NCBI GenBank assembly: GCA_021513695.1 | Contig: CP084166.1 | Coordinates: forward strand, 2,688,001-2,752,000 | Direction of reading: 5' to 3' | From: Candidatus Heimdallarchaeum aukensis | Lineage (GTDB): Archaea > Asgardarchaeota > Heimdallarchaeia > Heimdallarchaeales > Heimdallarchaeaceae | Length of the DNA: 64,000 nucleotides | Shown: positions 9,928-60,358 of the stretch, piece by piece | How positions within the stretch are numbered: the first letter of the stretch is position 1 | Layout of the letters: every line of letters begins with the position of its first letter | Made by a program: the position numbers and the translations under genes | Notes under the pieces: generated by a model | The model's database searches: none | What the model was told of the DNA's origin: nothing | Seen by the model: only the letters and a program-made list of their open reading frames with translations

Positions 9928-9930
9928 TTC

Positions 9931-16671: not shown

Positions 16672-16778
16672 TATTCCATAAATAAGAAAATTGTTTTTAA
16701 ATTTAAGTTTTCACAACTTATTAATCAACGATTTAAAAGTTCCTGTTGTTAAACCTATAAGTATTTATTCAATTCTTT

Positions 16779-17927: not shown

Positions 17928-18316
17928 TTTTCTAACACAATACAGAAAATATTATTATAGTATTCTAAGTATTTCATCTTAATAAAAATTATGATGTGCT
18001 AATTTTTGAACTTTAAACATAAAAAAGTTCTTTACTAAAATGATTCAAATTATTTGTTAAATTAAATTAAGGTACAAGATATTTGGAAATCAAAACATAT
18101 GCAAATGATTTATTTAATAAAGAAATAATTTATCCTAATACATTATATTAGTTACTGCTGTAACAACGATCTCTGTTAATAACTTTTTTTTTCATAATTT
18201 GCAATTAAACTCTTTATGTAATTCTTTTAATGTCAACTATATTACCACTTAAAAACAAAATTTGTCAAATAATAATATTTATTTTTTTCAGTATTATAAA
18301 TTTTAATAGATAATAA

Positions 18317-18676: not shown

Positions 18677-18863
18677 TTAAATTTTTATCTAATTTTCTTA
18701 ACAAACTTGGTTTTTTATTGAAAGAATAGTAATTAATCTTTATAAGATGCGATTAGCTCAGTATTACTATTCATTTAAACTATAAAATATATTGATACGA
18801 AGTGTATCTTAATCTTTATTAATGAGAAAGAGAAAAGTATACACTTAACAAAGAGGGAAACAA

Positions 18864-19625: not shown

Positions 19626-19719
19626 TAGAATTATTTCTCCTAGATTTATTCTCGAAATAAAAGTTCTAATTATTAATGTCCTAAATAAAAAGTAAAAAAG
19701 AAAAAAAAAGAATTTGATG

Positions 19720-20844: not shown

Positions 20845-21028
20845 ATAAACTTGGTTGATTGAAATTATTTAAACAATTATTTAAATACTATGTTAAAATT
20901 ATTTCACTTTTTTATTAACTAGTAATGCATAAAAGTAAAAAATAGCATAAAAGGCAAAAAAAATGACCTGACACCAAATATGAAGCAAAGAACATAATAT
21001 TTTGTTTTTTAAAAAAAAGAAAAAAGAG

Positions 21029-22048: not shown

Positions 22049-22292
22049 TTTTTATATGGTTGTGTTCAACCAAAAGAAAGTTCATATTATCTTATAAAAA
22101 CATTGTGTCAAATTTTTATAAGTAAATACTTATTTGAAAAAACGGCGCACTTGCTTGCCTTAGTTTAACAAATTGTTTGCCTTACAAGTTTCTGAAAAAA
22201 GGAGTTTAATTGCGGGGTAACAGTTGTTTTTTGATACCTACAAAAAAGTTGGTTGAGACAAAGGGATAAAAATATAAATGTTAATTTGAAAT

Positions 22293-42863: not shown

Positions 42864-43844
42864 CTATTCATCTTGAAAATCTCTTATTAGGGTAACTTCA
42901 AAGAGTGGTGCAGCTTTTACAGACCAGAAAACTTGTTTATCTATTATATTGCTTAGAAGGTAACGCGTTATTTCAGTTTCAGTTAAACCTGTTTTTGTTT
43001 TCTTGATACCTTGTAAATCCTTCACAAATTCTATCAACAATTTCGTTAATAGATTTGTAGATCTTATTTGTTCCATTCTGGTGGTAACTAACCAACACGA
43101 AACAGAATCATCAGCAGCCATGATAAACTGACGGTCTCTATATTTCAAAATTTCAATTATAGGAAAATGACTAGAAGAAAATTTACACTGAATGACTGGA
43201 GATAAAATATCAGAGTTCAAATTAGATTGAGGAGTAGTTAATCTCATCTCGTAAACTCCCTTATCAGTTTTGATGTAAGAAATAAACATCTCAACAGTTA
43301 TTTTGTCAACTATTAATTGTTGGATAATGCTTGAAGCTAACCAATTAATTGTTCTATCAAAATTTTTTCCTGAACTAAAGGATGTGCTTAAATACTCGAT
43401 GTTTTTTTTTCTTACTCCATCTGAAAATTTCTTAACTATGGATTTTACTTCAGAGTTAGAGAATTCTTCATCTCTCATGTTAAATAATACTAAAACAGGA
43501 TTTTCTTCTTTTAACCAATTTAAAGAGCGAGTAAACCACTTTTTAGATTCATGTAGCTGATCTTTTTTAGTAATATCTGTAACATAAATAAGTGCATCAG
43601 AGCGAGAAATAAAACTCTTCCATAAGGTCTTTCTAAAAGAAGGAAGACCACCTAAATCAGTAATATCTAATATTATACCATCGGCATTATATAACTCGTG
43701 GTTAACTCCCATTGTAGAAGTGATAATGGTGTTGTTGTAACCTAATAGACGGTTAATGAAATAAGTTTTGCCAGAATTTTCTAATCCAGCAACAGTAACA
43801 GAAATATCACGTTTCAAATAATAATAATTCGGTGACACATCCAA
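42864..43844 (-). CDS. Rag/Gtr-like small GTPase with a C-terminal extension of about 150 aa (possible roadblock/longin-type domain)
   Basis: G1 'VAGLENSGKTYFINRL'. Switch-I Thr in 'IITSTMGV'. G3 'LDITDLGG'. 'ALIYVTDI' then 'VLVLFNMRDEE' parallel RagA 'VLIYVFDV' and 'LVHKMDL' (an H/N-K/M-x-D G4 variant). 326 aa matches Rag length. Confidence 0.55.
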   Translation of the reverse strand: MDVSPNYYYLKRDISVTVAGLENSGKTYFINRLLGYNNTIITSTMGVNHELYNADGIILDITDLGGLPSFRKTLWKSFISRSDALIYVTDITKKDQLHESKKWFTRSLNWLKEENPVLVLFNMRDEEFSNSEVKSIVKKFSDGVRKKNIEYLSTSFSSGKNFDRTINWLASSIIQQLIVDKITVEMFISYIKTDKGVYEMRLTTPQSNLNSDILSPVIQCKFSSSHFPIIEILKYRDRQFIMAADDSVSCWLVTTRMEQIRSTNLLTKLLIEFVKDLQGIKKTKTGLTETEITRYLLSNIIDKQVFWSVKAAPLFEVTLIRDFQDE

Positions 43845-44274: not shown

Positions 44275-45282
44275 TTGAGTTTAAAAGGATATATACTCAG
44301 ACGAACAATCTACATAGTTCCTATTATGCTTGCAATTACACTAATGAACTTTACACTGATTAACATCAGTCCAGGAGATCCTGTTTTAGTAAGATTAGGA
44401 CTGATTAAATGTGAAACACCTGAATGTTACAACGCAGCGTACAACAAAGAAGCAATAGAAATGGGACTACTAGATAATAGTTTATACACTGTTCCATGGT
44501 TCGAAAGATATATAGATTTTGTAAATGATCTATTGCATTTCGACCTAGGAAAAAGCTGGTCATATACCCAAGCAGGAGAAGGGATACCGATATCGAAAAT
44601 AATTGGAGACCACGCAGTTTATACGGTGGTGCTAAACTTACTATCATTTGTTTTATCACTATTATTATCAACAGCAATAGGGGTAGTATCAGCAACAAGA
44701 CAAAACAGTTTCTGGGATAGAACACTAACAGTAGCAATGCTATTAGGATATTCTATGCCTTTGTTCTGGTTAGCAAAATTGTTAATGCTAGTGTCCTATT
44801 ATTTATTTAACTTTACAGGAGTAGCAAACAAATCGGCGTTTAACAAACCGTTAATACTGAACCCGATGTTCTATAAGTTCTTAATATTACCAACATTGTC
44901 ACTAACACTGGGTGGACTAGTGTTCATGGCAAGGTTAATTAGATCACAACTGCTGGAGATATTAAGACAAGATTACATAACAACTGCAAAATCAAAAGGA
45001 TTAGATAGAAGAGCAGTAATATACAAACACGCGTTCAGAAATGGTTTATTGCCTATAGTAACAATTATAGGAAATTCACTACCAGGATTACTATCCGGGT
45101 CAGTAATGGTTGAGTCAGTCTTCGGATGGCCAGGATTAGGAACAATATTCCTAGAAGCTGCATTTATGAGAGATTATCCAATGATGATGGCAACAAACAC
45201 AATATTTCCATTCCTGTTCCTAATAGCAAGATTGCTGACAGATATAACCTATGTCTTTATAGACCCGAGAATAAAATACTAA
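44275..45282 (+). CDS. oppB: Oligopeptide/dipeptide ABC transporter permease (OppB/DppB-like)
   Basis: 6 TM. 'EAA'-loop region 'ITTAKSKGLDRRAVIYKHAFRNGLLPIVT'. Confidence 0.8.
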   Translation: MSLKGYILRRTIYIVPIMLAITLMNFTLINISPGDPVLVRLGLIKCETPECYNAAYNKEAIEMGLLDNSLYTVPWFERYIDFVNDLLHFDLGKSWSYTQAGEGIPISKIIGDHAVYTVVLNLLSFVLSLLLSTAIGVVSATRQNSFWDRTLTVAMLLGYSMPLFWLAKLLMLVSYYLFNFTGVANKSAFNKPLILNPMFYKFLILPTLSLTLGGLVFMARLIRSQLLEILRQDYITTAKSKGLDRRAVIYKHAFRNGLLPIVTIIGNSLPGLLSGSVMVESVFGWPGLGTIFLEAAFMRDYPMMMATNTIFPFLFLIARLLTDITYVFIDPRIKY

Positions 45283-45301
45283 AAGAGGAGAGTAAAGAAA
45301 A

Positions 45302-46363
45302 ATGGCAACAGTTGATAAAAAAGCAGTAGAAGAGGAAGGACCAATTCTAGATGAAACAACTTTAAAAGAAATTGAAAGCATGAAAGGAGCAGGACAATGG
45401 TCTATTGTATGGAGAAGATTGAAAAAGGATACAATGGGAATGGTAGGATTATACATTGTAACATTCCTAATATTGATGGCAATAGTGTCCTGGTTCTTAC
45501 TAATGTACGATAAATGGCTATTTAATAATGTAGCACTAACAAGAGATCCAGATAATCCATACTCACTAGCTAATCTATATGTAGACTTCTGGCTACCTGG
45601 AATGAAGGAACCAATAATACTGTTCCAACATCCAGAATGGCAATTCGCAGATCAAGTAAAATTGCCACCAAGCATTGAACACCCATTTGGAACAGATAAA
45701 AACGGAAGAGATATGTTCTCAAGAGTGTTCTTTGGAGCTACAATATCAATGGCTCTAGGTTTCATTGGACAAATGACAACCGTAATCATCGGAACAATTT
45801 TAGGATCACTTTCTGGATATTATGGTGGATTATTTGACGACATCCTACAAAGAATAGTAGAATTACTATACTCAATGCCTGGATTTATCTTGCTAGTGTT
45901 CGTAATCGTGCTATTCGAAAATACAAATATACCAGGAGGAAGATACGCAGTAGTAGTAATATTCTTCTCACTAATAAGCTGGGGAGGAACAGCACTTATA
46001 GTAAGATCGAACTTCTTCTCGCTAAAACAACAAGACTTTGTAGAAGCAGAAAAAGCACTAGGGGCAGCAGACATGAGAATAATATTCAGACATATACTAC
46101 CAAACTCACTAGCACCACTGATAATTATAATAACGCTAGGTATAGCAGGAACAATATTCACATTCGCAGCACTAGCATTCTACGGATTCGGAGACCCAAA
46201 CGTCGTTTCCTGGGGTGACGACCTTAACCGCTGGCAAAATGATCTCATGACTTATCCGTGGATGCCCATGTTTCCCGCTCTAATGATATTTTTCACAGTG
46301 TTGGGTTTCAACTTACTTGGTGACGCCCTTCGTGATGCTCTTGATCCTCGTTTGAAAGATTAA
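45302..46363 (+). CDS. oppC: Oligopeptide/dipeptide ABC transporter permease (OppC/DppC-like)
   Basis: 'VEAEKALGAADMRIIFRHILPNSLAPLII' is the EAA loop. N-terminal extension before TM1 is typical of OppC. Confidence 0.8.
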   Translation: MATVDKKAVEEEGPILDETTLKEIESMKGAGQWSIVWRRLKKDTMGMVGLYIVTFLILMAIVSWFLLMYDKWLFNNVALTRDPDNPYSLANLYVDFWLPGMKEPIILFQHPEWQFADQVKLPPSIEHPFGTDKNGRDMFSRVFFGATISMALGFIGQMTTVIIGTILGSLSGYYGGLFDDILQRIVELLYSMPGFILLVFVIVLFENTNIPGGRYAVVVIFFSLISWGGTALIVRSNFFSLKQQDFVEAEKALGAADMRIIFRHILPNSLAPLIIIITLGIAGTIFTFAALAFYGFGDPNVVSWGDDLNRWQNDLMTYPWMPMFPALMIFFTVLGFNLLGDALRDALDPRLKD

Positions 46364-46650
46364 ATTAATTCTTTTTTTCCTTTTTCAATTATTTTTTCAA
46401 CTATTTCTAAAAATAATAATACTTTGAGTTTAGATAGACTCTTGTAACTTTTAAGGAAGTAGAAGCGCTAATTTATCTCTTTCAATAAAATTATTCCAGA
46501 AAACAATTGACATTTATTTCCTATCCTGTTGTTCATCAAGCAGAATTTGAGCAACCTATGCTTATATAGCATGTGGAAAAGCTTATACAGAAGGCAGAAA
46601 AGCGACATAATTATTATAAATATCTGTAAGAAAATATAGTCGCTCAACTA

Positions 46651-47340
46651 GTGGAAAATGTAACAAGGGAGATAAAAAAATCATGCCTAAATTACTTAGG
46701 AAAAAAAATTATGTATAAATTGCTGGGAAAATTATTAATACTAATATTACTGCTTCCAATACTTATTTTTCATGGTGTGTTATCAATTAGAGGTGCTCAA
46801 CCTGTTCTCGCTTCTAGAATTTCTGAGATTACTGAAATCACAATTTCTGAATCTACTGATAACCCTTTATTTGAAAATTATACTGCTTTTAAAATCGAAG
46901 CTGAAGTAGAGATCTTAAATAGAGCTGATGAAAATCAAACAGTTATTTCTCCTGATCTTAAACTTATGATTAATGCAAGCTTGGTTAATCAATCATTGAA
47001 GTTGGTAGTGGAAGCAATGGGTTCTTGTATGGTTACTTACGACACCTATTCTCCTGGTATCACTATTGAAAATCACTCTCTTAAATTCTATATTAATCAA
47101 ACGGATTTAAGTTATCTCCCTGATGGTAATTATACTCTCTGGAGACCTATTAATGGGGGAGAAGAATTACCTACGATTATTATAATTAAATCTGGTATAA
47201 TGAATATTACTTACAGTAGTTTTGGCAATCAAGAGACTGAAGCGGTGAGCTTTTTCCTTCTGTTTCCTTTAATGTTATTCCTTCCACTCTTTTCATATGT
47301 GATTGTCTTTTCTAAATGTAAAAAGTCAGAGATTGCTTAA
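46651..47340 (+). CDS. Membrane-anchored extracellular protein (N-terminal signal/TM, N-glycosylation-sequon-rich ectodomain, C-terminal TM anchor)
   Basis: 'MYKLLGKLLILILLLPILIF' near the N-terminus, several N-x-S/T sequons, and C-terminal 'VSFFLLFPLMLFLPLFSYVIVF'. Its 3' end plus downstream sequence is repeated at 51467..51564. Confidence 0.4.
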   Translation: MENVTREIKKSCLNYLGKKIMYKLLGKLLILILLLPILIFHGVLSIRGAQPVLASRISEITEITISESTDNPLFENYTAFKIEAEVEILNRADENQTVISPDLKLMINASLVNQSLKLVVEAMGSCMVTYDTYSPGITIENHSLKFYINQTDLSYLPDGNYTLWRPINGGEELPTIIIIKSGIMNITYSSFGNQETEAVSFFLLFPLMLFLPLFSYVIVFSKCKKSEIA

Positions 47341-47391
47341 AAGTTTCTTAGAAAAAAAACCTTACCATTTTTTGTTAAATTTTTGCCTTTG
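47299..47391. repeat. Left copy of a ~95-bp direct repeat (3' end of the 46651 gene plus downstream)
   Basis: 'ttttctaaatgtaaaaagtcagagattgcttaaaagtttcttagaaaaaaaaccttaccattttttgttaaatttttgccttt' re-occurs at 51467..51564 with a few mismatches. Confidence 0.8.
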
Positions 47392-47539
47392 TAATCATCT
47401 TATGTGCTCTTTAGGAATTATTTAAGAGATTATATGCGACAAAGGAGTTTTGTACTGACGTGGATGAAGAAGTACATAAATTTTTTAATGTTTTTGGGAA
47501 TATGATTTAAATCTTTATAATTGGAGGAAAATTGTTCTC

Positions 47540-48484
47540 ATGTTATCAGCTAGCAATATATCAAAAACATATCCGAATGGTATTAAAGCATTGCAAGACG
47601 TAAATCTTGAGGTTTCCGAAGGAGAGATAATGGGATTTATTGGCCTAAATGGTGCAGGAAAGACTACTTTTATTAAAATTGCGAATGGTGTGCTGCAAAA
47701 TGATACAGGTAACATTACGATATGTGGTATGAACCCCATATCTGAATTAAAAAAAATAACTCGTAAAATTGCTTGGATTCCTCAAGATGGTCTAAGAAAA
47801 TTCAACACATTTCTTTCTGGTCGTGATAATATAATCTATTTTTCAAGACTGAAGGGTATGAATTCCTTGCAGATTAATCAAAAGTTAGATGAACTCTTGG
47901 AGCATCTATGTCCAGCAAAGGATTTTATTGATAAGAAAATTTCAATTATGAGTGGAGGACAAAAGCAATTGTGCAATCTGTTAACGGGTTTTGTGTTAGA
48001 TAGCGAGTTTCTATTTTGTGATGAAATTTCAGTAAATATTGATCCTATAACCTTAGATAAGATCTACTCTTATTTGCGAGAATATGCATCAGAAGGTAAG
48101 TCTGTATTATTAACCTCACAAAATCTCCATGAAATTGAAGAGTTGTCAAACACTATCGCACTATTACACAAAGGAAAGATTATGCAGGTAGGAAAACCAA
48201 AGGACATATCCAATAAACTTCTAAAATATGAAATAATCGACATAGGGTTTGAAGAAAGAATGAAGGAACTGAATTCAATAAAAGATTTTAGCTTAAAACT
48301 GGAATCAATAGCTGATAAAATAATTATTGATAATGAAAAAAATTTGATACGTATTTATTGTGAAGATTCACTGAGCCTTTTACCTCAAGTAGTTGAGTTT
48401 CTAAAAGAGTATAACTTTGCTGCATCTATAGAAAGTGGTAAAGCTGATTTAACTAATGCAATTATAACTTTAGCGGGGAGATAA
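47540..48484 (+). CDS. ABC transporter ATP-binding protein (ABC-2/CcmA-like) with a C-terminal accessory domain of about 90 aa
   Basis: Walker A 'GLNGAGKTT', signature 'MSGGQKQ', Walker B 'FLFCDE'. 'ggagg' lies 8 nt upstream of the ATG. Confidence 0.8.
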   Translation: MLSASNISKTYPNGIKALQDVNLEVSEGEIMGFIGLNGAGKTTFIKIANGVLQNDTGNITICGMNPISELKKITRKIAWIPQDGLRKFNTFLSGRDNIIYFSRLKGMNSLQINQKLDELLEHLCPAKDFIDKKISIMSGGQKQLCNLLTGFVLDSEFLFCDEISVNIDPITLDKIYSYLREYASEGKSVLLTSQNLHEIEELSNTIALLHKGKIMQVGKPKDISNKLLKYEIIDIGFEERMKELNSIKDFSLKLESIADKIIIDNEKNLIRIYCEDSLSLLPQVVEFLKEYNFAASIESGKADLTNAIITLAGR

Positions 48485-48486
48485 CT

Positions 48487-49326
48487 ATGAAAACGTTTAT
48501 TGCGAACTTTATAACACAAATAAAATATTTTACTGGCCTCAGAGTCATATGGATTTCAAGGATCGTTTATGTTTTTGTATCCTTACTCACCTCATTTACA
48601 ATGGGTATGGTGTATAAATTTAATGAAGCAACACAAAATTTGATAGGTGTCCAAAATGTTGCTATATTTGTTCTTACTGGCTTTTTCTTGCAATTTTTAA
48701 TGAATGCAAGTTCAGGTTATACACCAGCAGCAGTTAGGGAGATGATACAAAATGGAAACCTTGAGTATTCAGTACATTGTGGAGCTAATATTGTTCAACA
48801 AATATTGGGTATATACATCGCTTCATATCTCTTCGATTTCGTTATTTGTTTGCCTTTCATTGTTACTTTGTCTCTCTTAACCATTAATACAATTTCAGTT
48901 TACGCTTTATTGTCTTTTATAGGTTTTCTCTTTATTTCAGGTTTGTGTCTTTTTTCTATAGGCTTTCTGTTTTCTTCTCTTTACGTTCTGAGCAAGGGAT
49001 TTCTTGGTTTTCATAGTGTGATTGCAAACATAGTCTACTTTATCTGTGGGGTCTATTTTCCAATACAAGGCTATTTAACTCTATTCGGTTCTGTGGGTGG
49101 CTGGATTGCCATAGCTATTGTGTCTATTTTTCCGTATACATATGTATTTGACCTATCACGTTATATGATTTTTCTCGGGCAAAATTATCAAACGTTTTTA
49201 CCTTTTGGTATTGAATTGATAATATTCATTTGTTCTTCAATTTTAATAATGCTTATTGCAATGCAACTATTCAAGTTAGGATTTAAAAGAATGAGAAAAA
49301 AAGGTTTCATAAGTTTTATCTACTAA
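48487..49326 (+). CDS. ABC-2-type transporter permease
   Basis: Six hydrophobic helices. Start overlaps the upstream ATPase stop by spacing, which suggests an operon. Confidence 0.6.
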   Translation: MKTFIANFITQIKYFTGLRVIWISRIVYVFVSLLTSFTMGMVYKFNEATQNLIGVQNVAIFVLTGFFLQFLMNASSGYTPAAVREMIQNGNLEYSVHCGANIVQQILGIYIASYLFDFVICLPFIVTLSLLTINTISVYALLSFIGFLFISGLCLFSIGFLFSSLYVLSKGFLGFHSVIANIVYFICGVYFPIQGYLTLFGSVGGWIAIAIVSIFPYTYVFDLSRYMIFLGQNYQTFLPFGIELIIFICSSILIMLIAMQLFKLGFKRMRKKGFISFIY

Positions 49327-49451
49327 TTCTAAATTTTCATTTTTCCCTTATTTTTTCTTATTCTTCCTTTTTCTTGATTTTTAGATTGTTTTTACTGCAA
49401 CTTATTAAGTAACAATTAAAAATAATAAAACTAATTATCTCTTGATTAAAC

Positions 49452-51464
49452 GTGCGTGATAATTTTTTCTTTCTTAGAAGGTTAAATCTTTTGGGTAAAC
49501 TTGAGAAGTTCGATAAATATTTTTCTTCTATTGATTGGACTTCTATTTTGGATGAAATCAATGAACGCTTGTTTTTTTTTGGTGGAGGTTATAGTCGCAT
49601 TCTTGATTTATTTTCTGCTACTCTCATTGAACGTGGTATTTGGTTTGATTCTCGTTATTATATGAGCAATAAAGTTCTTAAAATTGTCTTTAAGGTTTTA
49701 TCTCAGTTTGCAGATAACAACCTTATTTTTTCTTTAGTTTCTGCTTTGGATGACTACGATTCTGATGTTCGTGCTGCTGTTGCTGAGCTGTTAGGTCTAA
49801 TTGGCCATTCTCTTGCTGTTGACCCCTTAATCAAATTACTCAAAGATGAGAATTGCTTTGTTCGCAGTAGTGTTGTCATAGCTTTGGGTAAGCTTGGTGA
49901 TCCTCGCTCCATTGCTGCATTTAATGATATTGCCTTATATGATGATTCCCAGGGTGTGCGTGCCGATGTTATACGATCCTTGAGAGAGATAGGTGATCCT
50001 CTTGGTGTTTCCCTTCTAATCGAAGCCCTAAAAGATGAGGATAGTATTGTTGTAAGAGCTGCTTTAGAAGTCTTGCTAGAATTGGTTGATTCTGGTTCTG
50101 TTGAGTTATTAATAGAAGCTCTAAAAGATAGGCATTGGTTTGTTCGCAGTAGTGTTGCAGAAGCGTTAGGCAAAATAGGAGACCCTAGAGCCATTGACTC
50201 CCTAGTAGCTGCCTTGAAAGATAAGGATTATTTTGTTCGCAGTAGTGTTGCAAAAGCTTTAAGTAAAATGGACGATTCTAGAGCCATTGACTCCCTAGTA
50301 GCTGCCTTAAAAGATAAAGATTTGCGAATGCGTCGTATTGCTGCAGAAGTGTTGGGAGAAATAGGTGACTCTAGGGCAGTTGAACCCTTAATAGATGTAG
50401 CTCTAAAAGATGAGGGTTTTTTTGTGCGTGAAAAAGCTATAATACTGTTAGGTGAACTAGGTGATTCTAGAGCAGTCAAGCCCTTAATAGAATTACTAAA
50501 AGATGAAGATTGGGAAGTGCGTCGTAATGTTGCAACAGCGTTGGGTAAAATAGGTGACCCTAGAGCCATTGAACCATTAATCAATGCAACTCTATATGAT
50601 GGTAATTGTGAAGTGTGTTATTTTTCTAAAGAGTCACTGATAAAAATAGGTGATATGAGTGCCGTTGAACCTCTAATAGAAGGACTGAAAGATAAGCATC
50701 CTTCTGTTCGTTGTGTTGCTGCTGAAGTGTTAGGTGAACTAGGTGATTCTAGAGCTGTCAAGCCCTTAATAGAATTACTAAAAGATGAAAATAGGAAAGT
50801 GCGTTGTGATGCTGCAGAAGCGTTAGGTAAAATAGGTGACCCTAGAGCCATTGAACCATTAATCAATGCAACATTATACGATGATGTTTTTCATGTGCGT
50901 AATAATGCTGCCTCGGCACTGAGAGAAATAGGCGTTTCTAGTGCTGTTGAACCATTAGTTAAACTAGCCTTATATGATGAAGATTCAGAAGTGCGTAAAA
51001 ATGCTGCTTATGCTTTAGGTGAAATATGTAATCCTAATGTCGTTGACCCATTAATCGATGCAGACCTATATGATGATGAGGAAGTGTGTGAAAATGCTTC
51101 CTCTGAGTTAGGTTTAAGATGTGATCCTAGTTCAGCTGAATTATTAGTAAATTTAACACTCTATGAGGAGGATTCAGTAGTGCGTGCAAGAGCTTTAAAT
51201 TTATTGGTTCAAATACGTGATTCAATTGCAATAGAAAAATTAATCAATATAGTGCTGTATGATGAAGATTCAGAAGTGCGTAAAAATGCCGCAAAAGCCT
51301 TAGGTGAGATAGGTGATACAAATTCATTTGAAACATTAATAATGAATGCCCTAGATGATGACGAGGGGAAAGTGACTAAAAATGTTGAAGAAGCTGTAAG
51401 AATAATGGGCGATCCTGAATTAATTGAATCACTAGAAGATGCCCTATTAAATAAGAGTTGGTAA
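49452..51464 (+). CDS. HEAT-repeat (PBS-lyase HEAT-like) protein with about 17 tandem 31-aa repeats. A likely ATG start is at ~49662.
   Basis: Reiterated 'D.xVR..AA.ALG.IGD.RAI.PLI..LKDE' units. The 5' 70 codons start with GTG and are low-complexity. Confidence 0.75.
   Translation: MRDNFFFLRRLNLLGKLEKFDKYFSSIDWTSILDEINERLFFFGGGYSRILDLFSATLIERGIWFDSRYYMSNKVLKIVFKVLSQFADNNLIFSLVSALDDYDSDVRAAVAELLGLIGHSLAVDPLIKLLKDENCFVRSSVVIALGKLGDPRSIAAFNDIALYDDSQGVRADVIRSLREIGDPLGVSLLIEALKDEDSIVVRAALEVLLELVDSGSVELLIEALKDRHWFVRSSVAEALGKIGDPRAIDSLVAALKDKDYFVRSSVAKALSKMDDSRAIDSLVAALKDKDLRMRRIAAEVLGEIGDSRAVEPLIDVALKDEGFFVREKAIILLGELGDSRAVKPLIELLKDEDWEVRRNVATALGKIGDPRAIEPLINATLYDGNCEVCYFSKESLIKIGDMSAVEPLIEGLKDKHPSVRCVAAEVLGELGDSRAVKPLIELLKDENRKVRCDAAEALGKIGDPRAIEPLINATLYDDVFHVRNNAASALREIGVSSAVEPLVKLALYDEDSEVRKNAAYALGEICNPNVVDPLIDADLYDDEEVCENASSELGLRCDPSSAELLVNLTLYEEDSVVRARALNLLVQIRDSIAIEKLINIVLYDEDSEVRKNAAKALGEIGDTNSFETLIMNALDDDEGKVTKNVEEAVRIMGDPELIESLEDALLNKSW
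50430..50890. repeat. Near-identical internal tandem duplication of about 280 bp (three HEAT units) inside the HEAT-repeat gene
   Basis: 'ggtgaactaggtgattctagagc.gtcaagcccttaatagaattactaaaagatgaa...ggtaaaataggtgaccctagagccattgaaccattaatcaatgcaac' occurs at ~50451 and ~50733, about 90% identical. Confidence 0.7.
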
Positions 51465-51466
51465 AT

Positions 51467-51564
51467 GTGATATGTGCTTGTTTTTTCTAAATGTAAAAAA
51501 TCAGAAACTGCTTAAAAGTTTCTTAGAAAAAAATCTTACCTTTTTTGTTAAATTTTTTCTTTTC
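51467..51564. repeat. Right copy of the ~95-bp direct repeat. Together the two copies flank the 4.1-kb ABC-2/HEAT module.
   Basis: 'ttttctaaatgtaaaaaatcagaaactgcttaaaagtttcttagaaaaaaatcttaccttttttgttaaattttttcttttc', same orientation as the left copy. Confidence 0.8.
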
Positions 51565-51597
51565 TCTTTCCTTTCTCTTCTTTTTTGCTAACTTTTG

Positions 51598-51810
51598 TTA
51601 ATACCTGAATCTTTCTCTAGATTTTAAATAAATTTCCATCAGTTTTGGTTTTTTTGACGCTCTATCCATTAGTTCTTCAATTTCTTTCTTTGGTTGTCCT
51701 TTTTCTGCTTTAATTCTTGATGTAGTAACGATCACATAAATTAACATCGCAGTAATAGCTAAAAAACCTCCAAAAACGATTATACCGAAGGCTACTATTA
51801 CTATATTCAT
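51598..51810 (-). CDS. Small single-TM protein (copy 1 of a tandemly duplicated gene)
   Basis: 70 aa 'MNIVIVAFGIIVFGGFLAITAMLIYVIVTTSRIKAEKGQPKKEIEELMDRASKK'. About 75% identical to 52082..52297. Confidence 0.45.
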   Translation of the reverse strand: MNIVIVAFGIIVFGGFLAITAMLIYVIVTTSRIKAEKGQPKKEIEELMDRASKKPKLMEIYLKSRERFRY

Positions 51811-51879
51811 CGAATAATAATAGCTTTCAACAATTAAATACTTTTGGAAAAAAGGTATAATTAATTATCTCTTAATTTT

Positions 51880-52065
51880 TTGTTCATATGCCTTCATTAG
51901 TTCCTTAAAGCTTCTTCTTTTGTAATATCTTTTGGATTTAAGGTAAGTGTTCCATCGTTTATCGCTTTTTCTGTTATTTCTTCTAGCTGTTCTTCTTTTT
52001 CTCCCTCCTCTTTCAATGTTTTTGGTAATTTTGTTAATTAACCTTTCTTGAAGTTCTTCTACTTT
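51880..52065 (-). pseudogene. 3'-terminal fragment (about 60 codons) of an iron-alcohol-dehydrogenase gene, frameshifted and with the stop mutated. It is a relic of a ~480-bp tandem duplication.
   Basis: The DNA aligns with the 3' end of the intact ADH gene at 52361..52545 ('ttcatatgccttcattag...aaagcttcttcttttgt.a.atcttttggatttaaggtaagtg'). There is a ~5-nt indel relative to the intact copy and a tta->ttg stop change. Confidence 0.55.
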
Positions 52066-52081
52066 TTTTTACTGACTTATG

Positions 52082-52297
52082 TTAAAACCATAATCTTCCC
52101 TTATACTGTAAATAATTTTCCATTAATTTTGTATTTTTTGCTGCTCTATCCATTAATTCTTCAATTTTCTTTTTTGGTTGTCCTTTTATTGGTTTGATTC
52201 TTGATGTCGTAGCAATTAGATAAATTAATATCGACATAATAGCAAAAAAGCCTACAAAAACAATTACTCCAAAGGCTACTATTAGTGAACTCATCAT
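52082..52297 (-). CDS. Small single-TM protein (copy 2)
   Basis: 71 aa 'MMSSLIVAFGVIVFVGFFAIMSILIYLIATTSRIKPIKGQPKKKIEELMDRAAKN'. Confidence 0.45.
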   Translation of the reverse strand: MMSSLIVAFGVIVFVGFFAIMSILIYLIATTSRIKPIKGQPKKKIEELMDRAAKNTKLMENYLQYKGRLWF

Positions 52298-52360
52298 ATA
52301 ATAATAGTATTCGACAGTTATATACTTTTGGAAAAAGGGTATTAATTATTTCTTAATTTT

Positions 52361-53551
52361 TTATTCATATGCCTTCATTAGTATCCTTAAAGCTTCTTCT
52401 TTTGTTACATCTTTTGGATTTAAGGTAAGTGATCCATCATTTATCGCTTTTTCTGCTATTTCTTCTAGTTGTTCTTCTTTCACTCCTGCTTCTTTCAATG
52501 TTTTTGGTAATTTTATTAGTTCATTTAACCTCTCTTGAAGTTCTTCTATTTTTTCTATGAACTTTCTAGCTCTTTCTTTTTCTTCAGTTTTTACATATAT
52601 TTCTTCTCCCGCTAGTGGTAAAAGTAGTTCTTTTAACTCTTCTTTAATCTCTTCGTAGTTGAATTTAAGCACATGTGGTAGAAATATGTTCATTGCTACT
52701 CCATGAGGAATTTTTGCTACTGCTCCTGCAGCGTGTCCTAAACTATGTACTAGACCGACCATAGAATTAGAAAAAGCTACTCCTGCCATTGTTGCTGCTA
52801 TTGCCATTTCTAATCTTCTTTCTTTGTCCTTTCCATTTTTCACTAGTTCAACGATGTTTTTACTAATTAATTCTATAGCCTTCCATGCATAGACGTCGCT
52901 AAAGAGGTTTTTTTGTAAACAAGTATATGCTTCTATAGCGTGAGTTAGTGCGTCCATAGCTGTTAAAGCTGTTATATAAGCTGGTAGGGTAATAGTCATT
53001 CGTGGATCTATTACTGCTACGTCAGGCATAAGATATCGTGAAGTAAATAACATTTTAGTTGCAGACTTGTCATCTTTTATCACAGCAACTGCTGTTACTT
53101 CTGAACCTGTACCTGCAGTAGTAGGAATAACAAAAAGAGGTCTAAGCGGACGTTTTAATCTTTCTGCTCCAGCAAATTCTTTTAGATCTTTTCCTTTTTC
53201 TGAAACTAAGATATTTACTCCTTTTGCTGTATCTATTACTGATCCTCCGCCTATTGCTATTATCCCATCACATTTTTTTTCATTATAGATTTCTGCTATT
53301 TTATTTACTTCCTCGGTTGAAGAATCTTGAGGTATGTCATCTATTATAGCAGGGAATATTACATCTGCTCCTCCACATGCTTTAATTACTTTATCTACCA
53401 ACCCTGCTTTGTTTACTCCTCTATCAGTGAGAATGATAGGTCTTTTTACTCTGAAATTATCAAATTCCGAAGGCAAGTTTTCTAAAGCTTTTTTGCCTGC
53501 TAATATTTTTGTCTTATTCTGAAATTCAAAATATTCTTTCATTTTTTTCAC
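52361..53551 (-). CDS. Iron-containing (group III) alcohol dehydrogenase
   Basis: 'AIGGGSVIDTAKG', 'TTAGTGSEVT', 'DALTHAIEAY' and 'GLVHSLGHAAG' are Fe-ADH metal/NAD motifs. Confidence 0.85.
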   Translation of the reverse strand: MKKMKEYFEFQNKTKILAGKKALENLPSEFDNFRVKRPIILTDRGVNKAGLVDKVIKACGGADVIFPAIIDDIPQDSSTEEVNKIAEIYNEKKCDGIIAIGGGSVIDTAKGVNILVSEKGKDLKEFAGAERLKRPLRPLFVIPTTAGTGSEVTAVAVIKDDKSATKMLFTSRYLMPDVAVIDPRMTITLPAYITALTAMDALTHAIEAYTCLQKNLFSDVYAWKAIELISKNIVELVKNGKDKERRLEMAIAATMAGVAFSNSMVGLVHSLGHAAGAVAKIPHGVAMNIFLPHVLKFNYEEIKEELKELLLPLAGEEIYVKTEEKERARKFIEKIEELQERLNELIKLPKTLKEAGVKEEQLEEIAEKAINDGSLTLNPKDVTKEEALRILMKAYE

Positions 53552-53556
53552 CTTTA

Positions 53557-55935
53557 TTAAATGTTAAAAGGAATTGAGAATAAATATAGGTAAATTCTAA
53601 CAATATATCTCTTCATTAAATTAATAGTAGGTATTTTTCGCATTATTCTTTTTGCAATAATTCTTGGAAAAAGATAGGTTTCTGTGATATTTAGGCAACG
53701 TATTAGAGACATAGCAATTTGAGTATCTCCTTTAACTTTTATTGCATTAGATGCATAAGCATGATGTATGCCTTTCTGAGCAGTCATTAACTCAAAAGCA
53801 GCGTCTATAGTTCTAAAAGTAATAACTAGATCTGCTTGTTTTTCTGGAATCTTTTGAGGATTTAAGACTCCTTTTTTATTCTTTAAAAGCCCTAAACTAG
53901 TTTCATAGTTATCTACATTAAATAAAATCTTGAAATTTGTTGGCCAAGATCTAATCTCTTGCTTAATATTAGAATCAATAGTTGATAATGTCTTCATTGC
54001 TCTTCCTAAAATTGTAAAAACTAAAGATACTATTCTTTCTTTAATTCTCTTAGGTTTAGGTTGGAATCCTTCTTCTATTCCTAACTTTTTCATGACCTTT
54101 GCTGTTGGGACACCGTTTCTTGAATAACCTCTAATCTTGTAATACTTTTCTTGCATCTCTTCTAAGGGGACAACTTTTTTCTTTTTATCGCTCTCTCTTC
54201 CTTCATTTAGGAATCGTTCAGGAAGAGTATCATCTATTCTTGAGACACCTATCAAGGTGTTCATATATCTTTCTAGAATATGAATTCTTTCACCTGCTTT
54301 GAGAAAATCACGAGAACTTTGTTTTATTCCAGTTACAGTTTCAAATAATTTAGAGTAAATACTTATATCTAATACTTTTTGCGTTATTCTTGGAAAATAG
54401 CTAATAAAGATTTTCAGAAATATTTTTGGCGGATACTTTGCTATTGGTGCTTCTAACATAAAGGCATAAGAAGTAAAAATACATAATTGTAGTGAATTAA
54501 TTGCTGAAAAGAGATTTTCCATGTAATAAACAAACTGTGCTTTAGCTCGCTTCGATTCTCCTTTAAGAAAATTGAAAAATGCTTCTAGGGTGAATAATGA
54601 TGCAGAAAGGTGACACGCTCCTCTATTTGCAACACTGTAGGATAGCCCTTGTCCCCAACATCCTCTTGGATCATATCCTGAAAATTCTAGACCTTTAATA
54701 TTCATTGCAAATCCTTTTCCACCATATTTTTCTGCTAGCCTTTTAGTTCCAAGGGCTAACTCTTCTCCTATTCCTTTTCTGTATGCAATGTCATAAAGTA
54801 TTTCAGAAACTCCTTCTGGAGAACCAAATTTTAGTGGAAAAGAAAAGAGATTTTTCTCATTAGCTTCTATGGCATATGCTAATGTTACAGATATAGAAAT
54901 AGTATCTAATCCTAATCTTGAACAAATTTCATTCCATTCAGCAATTTTTTCAGCATCATATATCTCTAGATTAGAACCAAATAAACTTGTGGTCTCATAT
55001 TCTGGAGCTTGAATTAATTTACCGTTGAACATTCCTTTATGTCCACAGAGGATTGCACAGTTCCTGCAAGAGCTGTATTTCTTATAGAATTCGGACTTTA
55101 ATCTTTCACCATACAGTTCACTAGCTTTTTCGCTCATACCTTTTGTGAAATTGCGAACTGGTAAGATCTTTTTTTCGTTACATATCCTAAAACCAGCGTT
55201 TGTGCCATAATTTCTGTATAAATCTGAAGTATATTCGTTTCTATTAATATACTTAATTGCTTTTCTTTTTATTTTCATGTATTTCTTTTCTTTTTTTGGT
55301 TTTATTCTGAAAGAACCTTTTTCAACAACAATAGCTTTAAGGTTTTTAGCTCCAAAGACAGCTCCTATTCCTCCTCTACCAAAAAATCTGTGTCCAGAAG
55401 CTACATTGGCATAAAGAACCCTATTTTCTCCTGCAGGACCAATAACTAGATTCCCTTTATTTTTTGCTTCTAGTAATTCTTGAGTCTCAAAGATATCTTT
55501 ACCCCAAATTTTAGAAGCACTGTTAAATGAAACACCGTTTTCTGTAATAGATAGATAAGTTGGTTCTTTTGCTTGCCCTTTTATTATTACTCCGTCATAA
55601 CCTACAGATTTCAAGAAAAACGCAAATGACCCTCCACAAGATGAAGAAACTATTAAACCTGTAAGCGGAGATTTAGTAACAGCAGCAAAGCGAGAAGAAT
55701 TGGGTGCACCAGTTCCAACCATTACTCCACCAAAGATGGCAATAATGTTATCTTCACCTAAAGGGTCACAAGACAGATCCATCTTTTTATATAGATAGTA
55801 AATGGCTAATCCCTTTCCTCCGAGATAAAGTTTTCTTTCTTCATTACTTATAGAAACTGTTGTAAAAGCTTTCTTTGTAAGATCAATCTCAAGTAGTTTG
55901 TTGTGAGACCCTAAAATCAACCTAGGACTAGTCAT
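53557..55935 (-). CDS. AOR-family aldehyde:ferredoxin oxidoreductase fused to a C-terminal SCP2 (sterol-carrier-protein-2) domain and a hydrophobic/basic tail
   Basis: Residues 1-~615 are collinear with the AOR at 5807..7651 ('GGKGLAIYYL', 'SPLTGLIVSSSCGGSFAFFLKSVGYDGVIIKG', 'GPAGENRVLYA'). Residues ~640-750 read 'NFKILFNVDNYETSLGLLKNKKGVLNPQKIPEKQADLVITFRTIDAAFELMTAQKGIHHAYASNAIKVKGDTQIAMSLIRCL'. This parallels the SCP2 core '[46 protein letters not shown]'. Confidence 0.8.
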   Translation of the reverse strand: MTSPRLILGSHNKLLEIDLTKKAFTTVSISNEERKLYLGGKGLAIYYLYKKMDLSCDPLGEDNIIAIFGGVMVGTGAPNSSRFAAVTKSPLTGLIVSSSCGGSFAFFLKSVGYDGVIIKGQAKEPTYLSITENGVSFNSASKIWGKDIFETQELLEAKNKGNLVIGPAGENRVLYANVASGHRFFGRGGIGAVFGAKNLKAIVVEKGSFRIKPKKEKKYMKIKRKAIKYINRNEYTSDLYRNYGTNAGFRICNEKKILPVRNFTKGMSEKASELYGERLKSEFYKKYSSCRNCAILCGHKGMFNGKLIQAPEYETTSLFGSNLEIYDAEKIAEWNEICSRLGLDTISISVTLAYAIEANEKNLFSFPLKFGSPEGVSEILYDIAYRKGIGEELALGTKRLAEKYGGKGFAMNIKGLEFSGYDPRGCWGQGLSYSVANRGACHLSASLFTLEAFFNFLKGESKRAKAQFVYYMENLFSAINSLQLCIFTSYAFMLEAPIAKYPPKIFLKIFISYFPRITQKVLDISIYSKLFETVTGIKQSSRDFLKAGERIHILERYMNTLIGVSRIDDTLPERFLNEGRESDKKKKVVPLEEMQEKYYKIRGYSRNGVPTAKVMKKLGIEEGFQPKPKRIKERIVSLVFTILGRAMKTLSTIDSNIKQEIRSWPTNFKILFNVDNYETSLGLLKNKKGVLNPQKIPEKQADLVITFRTIDAAFELMTAQKGIHHAYASNAIKVKGDTQIAMSLIRCLNITETYLFPRIIAKRIMRKIPTINLMKRYIVRIYLYLFSIPFNI

Positions 55936-56078
55936 TTTTTTTAAAAGAAAAGAACTTGTTTAAATTTTTTTGTACTGGTAACGGAAATATTATGGTTTTC
56001 TATATTGGTAGAACTCAAAGAGAGAAAGTGAAAAAAAATGAAGAAGCAAACAAAAAAAGAAAAAAGAAAAAAAGGAGT

Positions 56079-59021: not shown

Positions 59022-59297
59022 TATTTTAACCTTTTATAGTTTACTAGTACATAGTTACTTTTCTTACATATATAAGGTAACTTCTCCAAAAAAGTAAAGT
59101 TTGTCTCTTAAACGAAGAAAAATAAGTAAAGTGGAATAATTCCTTAAAAAACTAGTATATTTTTATTTTCTAATTAAAGTAAATTATTAATAAGATTACT
59201 ATCTTTCAAAAAAGTTATAAAGTTCTGTAGTTTTTACGTTTATAACAAGGTAAAGCATTAAGATAAACTTATGCAAATGAAAATTTAAAGTGATTTT

Positions 59298-60347
59298 ATG
59301 AGTGTAAGAGCACCGGAAGATATTCTACTAGAAGTAAAAGGCTTAAAAACCTACTTCTTTACAGAAGAAGGAGTAGTGAAAGCTATAGAATCAATTAATT
59401 TTGTTGTTTATAAATCAGAAACATTAGGGCTAGTAGGAGAATCTGGATCTGGAAAAAGTGTAACTGCTCTAAGCATCTTAGGAATAGTACCGGACCCACC
59501 GGGAAAAGTCCTTGAAGGTGAAGTTATTTTCCATGGTCAAGATTTACGTAAATTAAGCCCTGCTGAAATGCGCAAAATCAGAGGAAACCAGATTGCCCAA
59601 GTATTTCAAGATCCAATGACCTCTTTGAACCCTGTTTTCACTGTTGGAGACCAAATCGGAGAAGCTATTATTCTTCATCAACAAGTTTCAAGGAAGGAAG
59701 CTAGAGAAAAAGCTATCAAAATTATGTCTCTTGTTGGTATTCCTTCTGCAGATGAACGTGTTGATAACTATCCCTTTGAGTTCTCAGGAGGTATGCGCCA
59801 AAGAGTTATGATTGCTATGGCTCTCAGTTGTAATCCTGAGCTTCTCATCGCAGACGAACCTACAACAGCTTTAGACGTAACTATTCAAGCTCAAATTCTC
59901 GAGCTTCTAAAAGCAACCAGTGAAGAGTTCGACATGAGTATTATTCTTATTACACATGATATGGGTGTTATTGCAGAGATGTGTGATCGTGTAGCAGTCA
60001 TGTATGCAGGGTATATTGCTGAAGTTAGCGACATAATGACTATTTTCAAGTCTCCTTTGCATCCTTATACCAAAGGTTTGCTCGGAGCTATTCCTCGTCC
60101 TGATGCGAAAAGAGAAGACTTGACGATTATTAGAGGAAGTATTCCTAATCTTATTAATCCTCCATCTGGATGTCGTTTCCATCCTCGATGTGATTACTGG
60201 ATTAAAGGCTTATGTGAAGTGAAAGTTCCTGAGTTTATAGAAATTGAACCAGGACATGAATTAATGTGCCACTTATACACTGAAGAAGGTAAAGCTTATC
60301 TGGAAGCTCACAAAGACCACCCCAGAATATCTTATGCAGCAAAGTAG
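59298..60347 (+). CDS. oppD: Oligopeptide ABC transporter ATPase (OppD/DppD-like)
   Basis: Walker A 'GESGSGKS', signature 'FSGGMRQR', Walker B '[12 protein letters not shown]', and a C-terminal oligopeptide-ABC 'GCRFHPRC' motif. Confidence 0.85.
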
Positions 60348-60358
60348 GTGAATAAAGA

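Follow-up and report, generated by a model that had tools for sequence, protein, structure and literature searches.

A 4.08-kb block of three genes, lying immediately downstream of a gene for a 229-aa protein (gene229) in Candidatus Heimdallarchaeum aukensis, constitutes an insertion/deletion difference between this species and its sister species, Candidatus Heimdallarchaeum endolithica PR6, two Asgard archaea, and the target sequence has been duplicated at either side of the block. The features of the locus, numbered from the first nucleotide of the window (the whole 64-kb stretch of H. aukensis DNA that was analysed), are as follows.

46651 to 47340, plus strand: gene229, the target gene, with a 229-aa product (209 aa if the start is M21)
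47295 to 47391, plus strand: left repeat copy, comprising the live 3′ end of gene229 (15 codons and the stop) followed by a T-rich stretch of 51 nt
47392 to 47539, plus strand: left inner end of the insert, 148 nt, non-coding, upstream of the ABC ATPase gene
47540 to 48484, plus strand: ABC transporter ATPase of the DrrA/ABC-2 type, below the cut-offs for that family (Pfam ABC_tran, E = 2.8e-22)
48487 to 49326, plus strand: ABC-2-type permease K9W45_12095, classed by its position next to the ATPase gene and by the family matches of its relatives
49353 to 49451, plus strand: upstream (promoter) region of the HEAT cassette, about 85% conserved relative to the region upstream of the PR6 HEAT paralogue
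49452 to 51464, plus strand: 670-aa HEAT/PBS-lyase-type repeat protein (Pfam HEAT_2, E = 7e-114)
51470 to 51564, plus strand: right repeat copy, in which the last 15 codons of gene229 recur in dead form, followed by the T-rich stretch
51553 to 51586, plus strand: homopyrimidine tract of 34 nt, the longest in the window
51573 to 52540, minus strand: older tandem duplication of 484 bp (units 51573-52056 and 52057-52540)

Direct repeats around a three-gene block

An initial annotation, made from the letters of the DNA, had described direct repeats of about 95 bp in the same orientation, and these were readily confirmed: the left copy (97 nt) and the right copy (95 nt) lie on the same strand and are identical at 86 of 96 positions, with one 2-nt indel. 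No other such pair occurs in the window, where the 51-nt and 24-nt cores of the repeat are each found exactly twice, against zero occurrences expected from 100 dinucleotide shuffles. The left copy does consist of a coding and a downstream part, as had been claimed, but the two parts measure 46 and 51 nt rather than about 30 and 65 nt; that is, the last 46 nt of gene229 lie inside the repeat, and the T-rich 51 nt that follow are probably its terminator region. The right copy now forms the 3′ flank of the HEAT gene. It carries the coding relic that the annotation had placed directly after the HEAT stop codon (51462-51464), but this relic begins 5 nt past that codon and would read YVLVFSKCKKSETA followed by a stop, two amino-acid changes away from the live C-terminus of the gene229 product. 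Because the last 46 nt of gene229 and the 51 nt downstream were duplicated, gene229 remains intact on the left while a dead 15-codon copy stands after the HEAT gene. Exactly three ORFs lie between the repeats (47540-48484, 48487-49326 and 49452-51464), so that the proposed bracketing of the ABC ATPase, the permease and the 670-aa HEAT protein was also borne out. Both junctions, gene229-repeat-ABC and HEAT-repeat-small-TM, were recovered in Logan short-read contigs from SRR15988954, SRR15988958 and SRR15988959 at 99.8-100% identity, and all of the assembled contigs inspected represent the occupied state. Since three independent assemblies reproduce both junctions, the arrangement is not an assembly artefact.

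The product of gene229 has one transmembrane (TM) segment at the N-terminus and another at the C-terminus, and gave no match in Pfam or NCBIfam. Its 95 homologues all come from Heimdall-group or Asgard MAGs or metagenomes, and the family is a Heimdallarchaeia-specific, multi-copy group of proteins of about 220 aa. The PR6 orthologue shows 87-92% protein identity.

The empty site in the sister species

Both H. aukensis repeat copies map onto a single stretch of PR6 (10615-10708). Window positions 46571-47390 align with PR6 segment 9921-10708 at 91%, the left copy being contiguous leftward with PR6, and window positions 51470-57021 align with PR6 segment 10615-16193 at 92.8%, the right copy being contiguous rightward. 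PR6 thus has the exact empty site, in which the stretch runs on the left into gene229 and on the right into the small-TM and Fe-ADH genes. This is the allele that the initial annotation had suggested looking for, with the target gene followed directly by the small-TM gene and ADH, and its presence in PR6 supports the core idea that the repeats mark an insertion/deletion with a duplicated target. Beyond the single orthologous copy, no further copy of the repeat was detected in 38.7 kb of PR6 or in the other fetched loci; with a unique pair in the window and one copy in PR6, a dispersed intergenic motif, named in the annotation as the case that would speak against it, is excluded within the available data.

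The insertion site is the short gap between the convergent genes gene229 and small-TM. Its right flank is formed by the 484-bp tandem duplication, which is present in PR6 too and in which each unit contains a 70/71-aa small-TM gene and a 3′ end of the Fe-ADH gene, live in unit 2 but surviving as a relic in unit 1. Homopyrimidine tracts of at least 24 nt number four in 64 kb, whereas 0.01 would be expected from shuffles. The 34-nt tract takes in, or lies a few bases from, both the equivalent of the left junction of the insert and the left edge of the 484-bp duplication. This sharing of the tract by the insert junction and an older duplication breakpoint suggests a recurrently broken spot, although an intergenic gap of only about 80 nt makes some of the clustering unavoidable.

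A composite cargo

The insert is filled by its three intact genes, separated from each other and from the repeats by spacers of 148, 2, 125 and 5 nt. The 148-nt left inner end shows no similarity to any other fetched sequence; an 8-mer within it, TATGTGCT (47401-47408), also opens the right repeat copy, a marginal match that would arise by chance in about 5% of cases. The best NCBIfam match of the ATPase is drrA (167 bits versus a cut-off of 312). The permease has no Pfam match of its own, but four relatives were identified at 47-51% identity, two of which have precomputed ABC2_membrane family matches, and the ATPases paired with these relatives are 45-48% identical to the ATPase of the insert. 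PR6 has no relative of the permease anywhere and lacks the ATPase-permease operon. Elsewhere, the relatives of the ABC pair at about 50% identity are never accompanied by a HEAT partner, and the contigs that carry them have the same GC content of 31-32%. The insert is itself native-like in composition, and the proposed comparison of 47392-51466 with its surroundings consequently gave no signal of foreign origin.

The HEAT protein, which has a unique N-terminus of about 95 aa and whose gene contains internal repeats of 93/96 nt (families D1-D3), is 47% identical to and collinear with a 677-aa HEAT protein of PR6, the gene for which is inverted and located on the opposite side of gene229. The HEAT gene is promoted separately. 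Homology with the PR6 paralogue stops 8-12 nt past the stop codon, where the repeat starts. The HEAT tail (GATA... in the H. aukensis and PR6 paralogues) overlaps the start of the repeat (CATATGTG) by 3-7 nt, in a comparison made with a paralogue and not with the donor, and the bases shared at this border are ATA, possibly up to ATATGTG. The right junction resembles a joint made through microhomology, placed right where a gene cassette ends. The insert is composite: the ABC relatives occur without a HEAT gene, and the HEAT cassette possesses a conserved promoter of its own and is sharply bounded on its 3′ side. The three genes, which the initial annotation had treated as one module, do not form a single conserved unit; the ABC pair is one cassette and the HEAT gene another.

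Origin of the block

The explanation that we prefer, tentatively and with somewhat less than even confidence, is a one-time insertion, most likely through illegitimate, microhomology-type joining, in which 95-97 bp of the target were duplicated around or soon after the species split. In a single event and without a dedicated recombinase, DNA would have been joined into the site by illegitimate recombination of this type. This could have happened by the filling-in of a break whose ends were staggered by about 95 nt, by replication template switching with a return 95 nt behind the departure point, or by homology-facilitated illegitimate recombination in which a related archaeon supplied the DNA, and each of these routes would re-copy about 95 bp of the target. 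A target duplication surrounds the insert with no recombinase signature, as such an insertion would leave. A gain in the H. aukensis lineage would be the more likely direction; the repeat copies would since have drifted about 10% apart, and the structure would be a fixed scar rather than an active element. This left-right divergence is about the local neutral divergence between the species (5.5-11% at third codon positions of the adjacent orthologues), and the event is accordingly old. Some observations sit uneasily with this reading. The microhomology at the right junction is deduced from a 47%-identical paralogue, target duplications of about 95 bp are unusual for break repair, and no donor locus was found, so that neither junction could be compared with a pre-insertion partner.

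The block and its repeats may instead be ancestral, in which case the empty site of PR6 would be secondary, produced by homologous recombination between the copies, and each species would have kept one HEAT paralogue of a neighbouring pair. We consider this a possibility, but on the whole an unlikely one. The two repeat copies are about 10% apart, and the left, right and PR6 sequences are related in a star-like manner, with about 10 differences each, the divergence between the H. aukensis copies equalling that of either one from PR6. The local neutral divergence between the two species lies in the same range, at 5.5-11%. Direct repeats of 95 bp readily recombine so that the DNA between them is lost, and exactly one HEAT gene of the same subfamily lies beside gene229 in each genome, on opposite sides. 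Loss from PR6 by recombination between the repeats is conceivable because the two outgroup-polarised sites conflict: at position 37 the left copy groups with PR6 against the right copy, whereas at position 18 (Tyr to Ser codon) a derived state is common to both H. aukensis copies and absent in PR6. However, the PR6 copy is not a clean left/right chimera, its states alternating along the sequence, and PR6 has no ABC-2 pair at all. More distant gene229 relatives likewise show no such block downstream, although synteny is not conserved there anyway. Moreover, an ancestral block concerns only the direction of change and leaves the origin of the repeats unexplained.

Site-specific integration, which the initial annotation had put forward for the repeats, would make them the attL and attR of a small island at the 3′ end of gene229, the integrase having been lost cleanly or acting in trans; the island would have carried a replacement 3′ end for gene229. 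Direct repeats of about 95 bp that rebuild a gene 3′ end are a textbook mark of integrase-mediated integration. Here, the repeats exactly bracket the cargo and correspond to one attB-like site in the empty allele, and they span the end of a gene that stays intact. A 25-nt core is identical in all three copies (left, right and PR6), as in an att core and contrary to what we prefer, although by our own estimate such a run has a chance of roughly 20% at the observed divergence. A crossover inside the core would also predict a switch of the odd copy across it; to the left of the core the right copy is usually the odd one, and to the right the left copy sometimes is (3:1 versus 2:2, not significant). 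The two genomes contain many integrases and transposases, 11 families of which could act in trans, as well as tRNA-adjacent integrations (PMC8813620), and such a supply in trans would run counter to the preferred insertion without a recombinase. Nevertheless, we rate integration as a possibility that is rather unlikely. The statement that no integrase or transposase is present holds for the insert and for all but three of the window ORFs of at least 150 aa, those scanned or with precomputed Pfam matches. The insert contains no recombinase gene, pseudogene or remnant, nor is there room for one between its three intact genes, and thus no tyrosine or serine recombinase lies inside the element beside the att-like site. 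Searches of viral and metagenome contigs did not recover the repeat core, and those of viral contigs, plasmids and phages did not recover the cargo; no attP, second use of the site or 3′-end duplication was seen in these contigs or downstream of other gene229 relatives. Inverted repeats and arms are lacking in the repeat (its predicted fold is not significant, with z-scores of +0.87, -1.16 and -0.10), and the cargo, which has no element backbone, stops exactly where a gene cassette does. The att-site proposal hence received no positive evidence.

Other classes of element were considered and rejected. A DDE transposon or insertion sequence does not fit, as there is no transposase, the best inverted match between the ends of the insert is no better than in shuffles (p = 0.66), and the duplication measures 95-97 bp versus 2-15 bp. 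An integron cassette with attC is contradicted by the lack of a palindrome fold, the presence of two copies only and the lack of an integrase. A structured RNA or tRNA-derived att site was discarded because positions 46000-53000 gave no Rfam match at E up to 1 and the window contains no tRNA.

A scar of several steps seems improbable to us: a tandem duplication of gene229 with its downstream region, arrival of the block between the two copies, and deletion of the second gene copy down to its last 46 nt. The family comprises multiple copies, some of them neighbouring paralogues in other genomes; in PR6 a truncated paralogue lies 18 kb downstream; and a true tandem duplication lies next door. 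But this account needs three events and the coincidence that the block has its left edge precisely where the first duplication unit ends. The right copy begins exactly at the HEAT cassette border, and the neighbouring paralogues elsewhere are in divergent orientation and unrelated to ABC-2 or HEAT genes. That there is no meaningful feature at all, but a match by chance, a dispersed promoter/terminator motif or a product of misassembly, is barely credible, since the repeat, although AT-rich and in terminator-like sequence, has a 24-nt core that occurred twice in 0 of 100 shuffles, is found only twice in the window and once in PR6, and has both junctions agreed on by three independent assemblies. 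The locus records a gain or loss of genes cleanly, if in a fairly ordinary way, and bears no mark of an active mobile element.

Comparison with known systems

Wu et al. 2022 described, in these same two genomes, HeimV1, which is integrated beside tRNA-Gly, as well as aloposons and CRISPR-Cas operons that adjoin tRNA genes (PMC8813620). That study makes no mention of the 4.08-kb block, and its repeat catalogue has a cut-off of at least 100 bp at 95% identity (PMC8813620), below which the repeat of the block falls. Like those elements, the block is present in one genome and absent at a conserved site in the other. Unlike them, it neither carries integrases or transposases nor adjoins a tRNA gene.

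Integron gene cassettes, which have been reported in archaeal MAGs, are each followed by an attC site. The present repeat of about 95 nt both precedes and follows a gene block and has a length within the attC range. However, it lacks the imperfect-palindrome structure, as the fold z-scores given above indicate, exists in only two copies with no IntI gene or attI site, and half of it is coding sequence of the neighbouring gene.

Att islands arise when tyrosine or serine recombinases integrate into the 3′ end of a gene, giving attL and attR direct repeats, and the cis-mobilisable elements (CIMEs) of Streptococcus thermophilus are integrase-less derivatives of such islands. In common with both, the cargo lies between direct repeats of tens to about 100 bp, a target gene that stays functional has its 3′ end within the repeat, and a related genome has a single-copy empty site; as in CIMEs, the flanks are att-like and the block has no recombinase inside. 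In contrast to them, no cognate integrase, attP or helper element was identified for the block, no reuse of the site was seen at gene229 relatives, the target is a lineage-specific protein gene rather than a tRNA gene, and the cargo, devoid of an element backbone, stops where a gene cassette does, in what looks like a microhomology joint.

Illegitimate duplicative insertion is represented by template switching (FoSTeS/MMBIR) and by homology-facilitated illegitimate recombination in transformable bacteria; to our knowledge, neither has been demonstrated in Asgard archaea. Compared with such insertions, the 95-bp duplication is long for break repair. As in such insertions, the inserted DNA is flanked by a duplicated stretch of target, the cargo is composite and needs no recombinase, and a breakpoint falls in a long homopyrimidine tract beside an older tandem duplication; one junction would share a few bases, to judge from a paralogue.

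Structure of the repeat pair

Two direct repeats, at 47295-47391 (97 nt) and 51470-51564 (95 nt), are identical at 86/96 positions with a single 2-nt indel. Within the 64 kb, their 51-nt and 24-nt cores have exactly two occurrences each, against none in 100 dinucleotide-preserving shuffles. The left copy takes in the final 46 nt of the ORF at 46651-47340 (+), with codons YVIVFSKCKKSEIA and the stop, followed by 51 nt of downstream sequence rich in T. This ORF, which encodes a 229-aa product, will be named hereafter gene229. The right copy starts 5 nt past the stop codon of a HEAT-repeat gene, with the predicted reading YVLVFSKCKKSETA followed by a stop. Exactly three ORFs are enclosed by the two copies, and a tandem duplication lies directly to their right:

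47540-48484, ABC ATPase, nearest to DrrA-type ATPases
48487-49326, permease, 279 aa, K9W45_12095 of Candidatus Heimdallarchaeum aukensis
49452-51464, HEAT/PBS-lyase-type repeat protein, 670 aa
51573-52056 and 52057-52540, units of a 484-bp tandem duplication, small-TM gene (70/71 aa) plus Fe-ADH 3′ end

Both junctions, gene229-repeat-ABC and HEAT-repeat-small-TM gene, were recovered at 99.8-100% identity in the short-read assemblies of three separate runs (SRR15988954, SRR15988958 and SRR15988959). An assembly artefact is thus excluded, and the direct repeats described in the initial annotation are confirmed. No empty site was present in any aukensis assembly on record, exact-protein look-ups returning the occupied aukensis state only. 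A dispersed motif was also ruled out, the copies being the two in the window and one in 38.7 kb of the sister species Ca. H. endolithica PR6; metagenome scans for further alleles, with the DNA core and with the gene229 protein, gave no match. At 51462-51514, the gene229 C-terminus in its dead copy is in frame with the HEAT ORF, two stops lying between them (TAA, then ATG TGA), and this shared frame is probably a coincidence. H. aukensis is one of the two closed Asgard genomes published by Wu et al. 2022 (PMC8813620), who do not mention the locus and whose repeat catalogue required 100 bp and 95% identity.

The empty site in PR6

When reference genomes were scanned with the 229-aa protein, PR6 (CP084167.1) was found, and the window was aligned to 38.7 kb of this genome. 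Window positions 46571-47390 correspond to PR6 segment positions 9921-10708 (91% match), and 51470-57021 to 10615-16193 (92.8% match). Since the two blocks overlap at PR6 10615-10708 (chromosome ~2,974,004-2,974,097), both repeat copies map to one single-copy stretch. In PR6, the small-TM genes and Fe-ADH come immediately after gene229; this is the empty-site allele that the initial annotation had proposed to look for. In a three-way alignment, the left copy runs on leftward into PR6 sequence and the right copy rightward, while the inner borders are abrupt. The two species differ by an insertion or deletion with a 95-97-bp target duplication, whose cargo is composite and carries no mobile-element hallmark.

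Composition of the insert

The 4.08-kb insert is a composite of an ABC pair and a separate HEAT gene. The ATPase and permease genes adjoin, with an upstream spacer of 148 nt. Four relatives of the permease were found anywhere (47-51% identity), none of them in PR6, and they lie on contigs of 31-32% GC, the same as Heimdallarchaeum. All four keep the pairing of ATPase and permease, followed by unrelated genes and never by a HEAT protein, which rules out a conserved three-gene module. The initial annotation had suggested comparing the composition of the insert with its surroundings; the insert was native-like when judged by GC, GC3 and tetranucleotide usage, and the HEAT repeats alone account for a mild deviation over its full length. 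As the ABC pair itself is typical on all three measures, a foreign composition was rejected. Neither viral contigs nor plasmids nor phages contained a match to the cargo, and a role in anti-phage defence was discarded, PADLOC giving generic ABC and HEAT matches only.

The HEAT gene has its own upstream region, the ~100 nt preceding the aukensis and PR6 genes being ~85% identical. Its PR6 paralogue (677 aa, 47% identity) is collinear and shares the unique N-terminus, and it lies inverted on the opposite side of gene229. A homology search with the HEAT protein was dominated by generic HEAT proteins; the top match came from a PR6-like strain in a JGI metagenome (L019), with the same arrangement as PR6. 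In both PR6 (segment L003, 6678-9920) and L019, the inverted paralogue is carried by a 3.2-kb segment between oppC and gene229, where aukensis has 164 unrelated nt (46407-46570); gene229 is thus accompanied in either species by one HEAT gene of the same subfamily, on opposite sides. No convincing direct repeats flank the PR6 segment, and no deletion scar was seen in the 164-nt replacement.

HEAT homology between aukensis and PR6 ends 8-12 nt past the stop codon (GGTAAATGTGATA versus GGTAAATTTGATA). At this point the aukensis sequence enters the repeat directly, with ATA, perhaps up to ATATGTG, common to the repeat start. The right inner junction thus falls just where a promoter-to-stop cassette finishes, and it resembles a microhomology joint. 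The 8-mer TATGTGCT, present three times in the window, is found at 47401-47408 (9 nt past the left copy) and at 51471-51478 (start of the right copy), a marginal coincidence (~5% by chance). Local alignment of the left inner end of the insert with the HEAT tail gave no significant similarity (p ~0.2).

Age and direction of the change

Within the repeat, the left, right and PR6 copies are about equidistant, with ~10 differences each, and the sites singling out one copy number ~4 for PR6, 5 for the right copy and 3-4 for the left copy. Taken with the third-codon identity of adjacent orthologues between aukensis and PR6 (0.89-0.945), these differences put the duplication at roughly the age of the species split. 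The repeat alone gives neither timing nor direction, as the pattern is star-like and the outgroup-polarised sites conflict: position 18 unites the two aukensis copies, whereas position 37 unites the left copy and PR6. Concerted evolution behind the repeat similarity was rejected, since the copies of the neighbouring tandem duplication group by orthology and not within genomes. A gain in the aukensis lineage is slightly favoured because PR6 lacks the ABC-2 pair, because no block of this kind follows gene229 in the outgroups, and because the PR6 copy shows no clean chimerism between left and right copies. Possibly, PR6 instead lost the block via recombination between the repeat copies.

Codon-position identities of gene229 between aukensis (46651-47340) and PR6 (L003, 10001-10660) are nearly equal (0.968, 0.941 and 0.945), which suggests that the gene may be under relaxed or diversifying selection; the PR6-specific changes in its last 15 codons are all amino-acid-changing. 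Along the region, third-codon identity to PR6 varies, being 0.80 for oppB/oppC (44275-46363) but 0.89-0.945 for gene229, Fe-ADH and AFOR (46651-55935), a hint of possible mosaic ancestry or of recombination between the two species.

A plastic neighbourhood

The insertion site lies within a very plastic stretch. The 484-bp tandem duplication directly to its right is older than the species split, as it is common to PR6. The Fe-ADH 3′ relic in unit 1 (51863-52056) is 97.9% identical between the species, above neighbouring coding DNA, and retains a 39-aa ORF (51897-52016, -) just upstream of the first small-TM gene; such conservation suggests that the relic may function as a leader, promoter or micro-protein. 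A homopyrimidine tract at 51553-51586 (34 nt, near-mirror symmetry) is the longest in the window, in which only four tracts of at least 24 nt occur versus 0.01 expected. Both the point equivalent to the left junction of the insert and the tandem duplication's left edge lie in this tract or a few bases from it, a clustering that is partly forced as the convergent genes lie only ~80 nt apart. Since the tract lies at the right edge of the repeat and the left edge of the tandem duplication, it may be a fragile site.

The block from gene229 to a 980-aa gene parts oppB/oppC from oppD/oppF-like genes, and the species differ there at two further places. The gap between the oppB/oppC-type permease genes (44275-46363) and two oppD/oppF-like ABC ATPase genes (59298-61564; assigned by ORF order, with a weak ATPase match for the second gene only) is 12.9 kb, and ~15.8 kb in PR6. 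The genes within it (gene229, the insert, small-TM genes, Fe-ADH, AFOR and the 980-aa protein) are unrelated, and the block between oppC and oppD looks like a putative variable island inside an opp operon. A further segment is replaced: aukensis 57021-59040, part of the 980-aa protein without Pfam match, stands opposite ~6 kb in PR6 (16193-22238, L003/L004) with other genes; one of these encodes a 480-aa TnpB-like protein (Cas12f1-like TNB domain), and another may be a fragment of a transposase gene. PR6 also has a truncated gene229 paralogue ~18 kb downstream of gene229 (L004, 10055-10378), a 107-aa ORF in which the gene229 upstream region and first codons are fused to the last ~106 codons, the DNA being 93% identical to the aukensis gene; its aukensis equivalent would fall ~1.1 kb past the window end. 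A 326-aa Arf-family small GTPase gene with a long C-terminal extension (42864-43844, -) adjoins the histidyl-tRNA synthetase and TBP genes. Arf-family small GTPases are among the eukaryote-like signature proteins of Asgard archaea.

Possible mechanisms of the insertion

A single illegitimate, microhomology-type insertion that re-copied ~95 bp of the target is the reading we prefer, tentatively. It could have proceeded by fill-in of a staggered break, by a template switch returning 95 nt behind its departure point, or by homology-facilitated illegitimate recombination with DNA of a related archaeon.

The main alternative, less likely, is integrase-mediated integration into the gene229 3′ end by a recombinase that has since disappeared or works in trans, as it does for cis-mobilisable elements. 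This would fit the repeat length, the preserved target gene and the 25-nt core identical in the left, right and PR6 copies. Against it stands the lack of any recombinase, attP, element backbone or reuse of the site. The absence of an integrase or transposase stated in the initial annotation holds for the insert and, among window ORFs of 150 aa or longer, for those scanned or with precomputed Pfam matches. The 25-nt core is absent from viral and metagenome contigs. Relatives of gene229 (80-85% and 56% identical) diverge directly after the stop, with no downstream duplicate of the 3′ end, and neighbouring gene229 paralogues in another Heimdall genome bear no relation to ABC-2 or HEAT genes. A transposon was ruled out, as there are neither terminal inverted repeats nor a transposase, and a tRNA-linked att site likewise, the window having no tRNA gene. 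A structured RNA, riboswitch or attC was also rejected, with no Rfam match at E up to 1 and no significant fold in the three repeat copies. Of the earlier interpretation, an att-like site or duplication scar, the insertion scar with target duplication stands with the PR6 empty allele, and site-specific integration was not demonstrated.

A scar left in several steps by a tandem duplication of gene229 is improbable, requiring more events and a coincidence of borders. Very doubtful is a still undescribed gene-cassette movement in Heimdallarchaeia, host-encoded or acting in trans, which would use the repeat as its recognition and duplication site and put promoter-to-stop cassettes into gene 3′ ends while duplicating ~95 bp; the HEAT gene, whose side relative to gene229 differs between the two species, would be an example of such a cassette. 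If true, it would offer a path for piecemeal gene gain in the archaea closest to eukaryotes.

Whichever route was taken, the occupied site in aukensis and the exact empty site in PR6 record, at base-pair resolution, the states before and after one gene gain or gene loss. Heimdallarchaeum provides the closed Asgard genomes closest to eukaryotes, and the event is a clean, datable example of accessory-gene turnover there. Accessory genes in this genus can be gained without visible mobile-element machinery, and the oppC-oppD stretch is a patchwork of such gains and losses. Should long duplications of gene 3′ ends prove to accompany many insertions genome-wide, they would indicate a specific mechanism; as a lone case, this one is tidy, unsurprising genome plasticity, a further example of a rearrangement type already known and not a new system.
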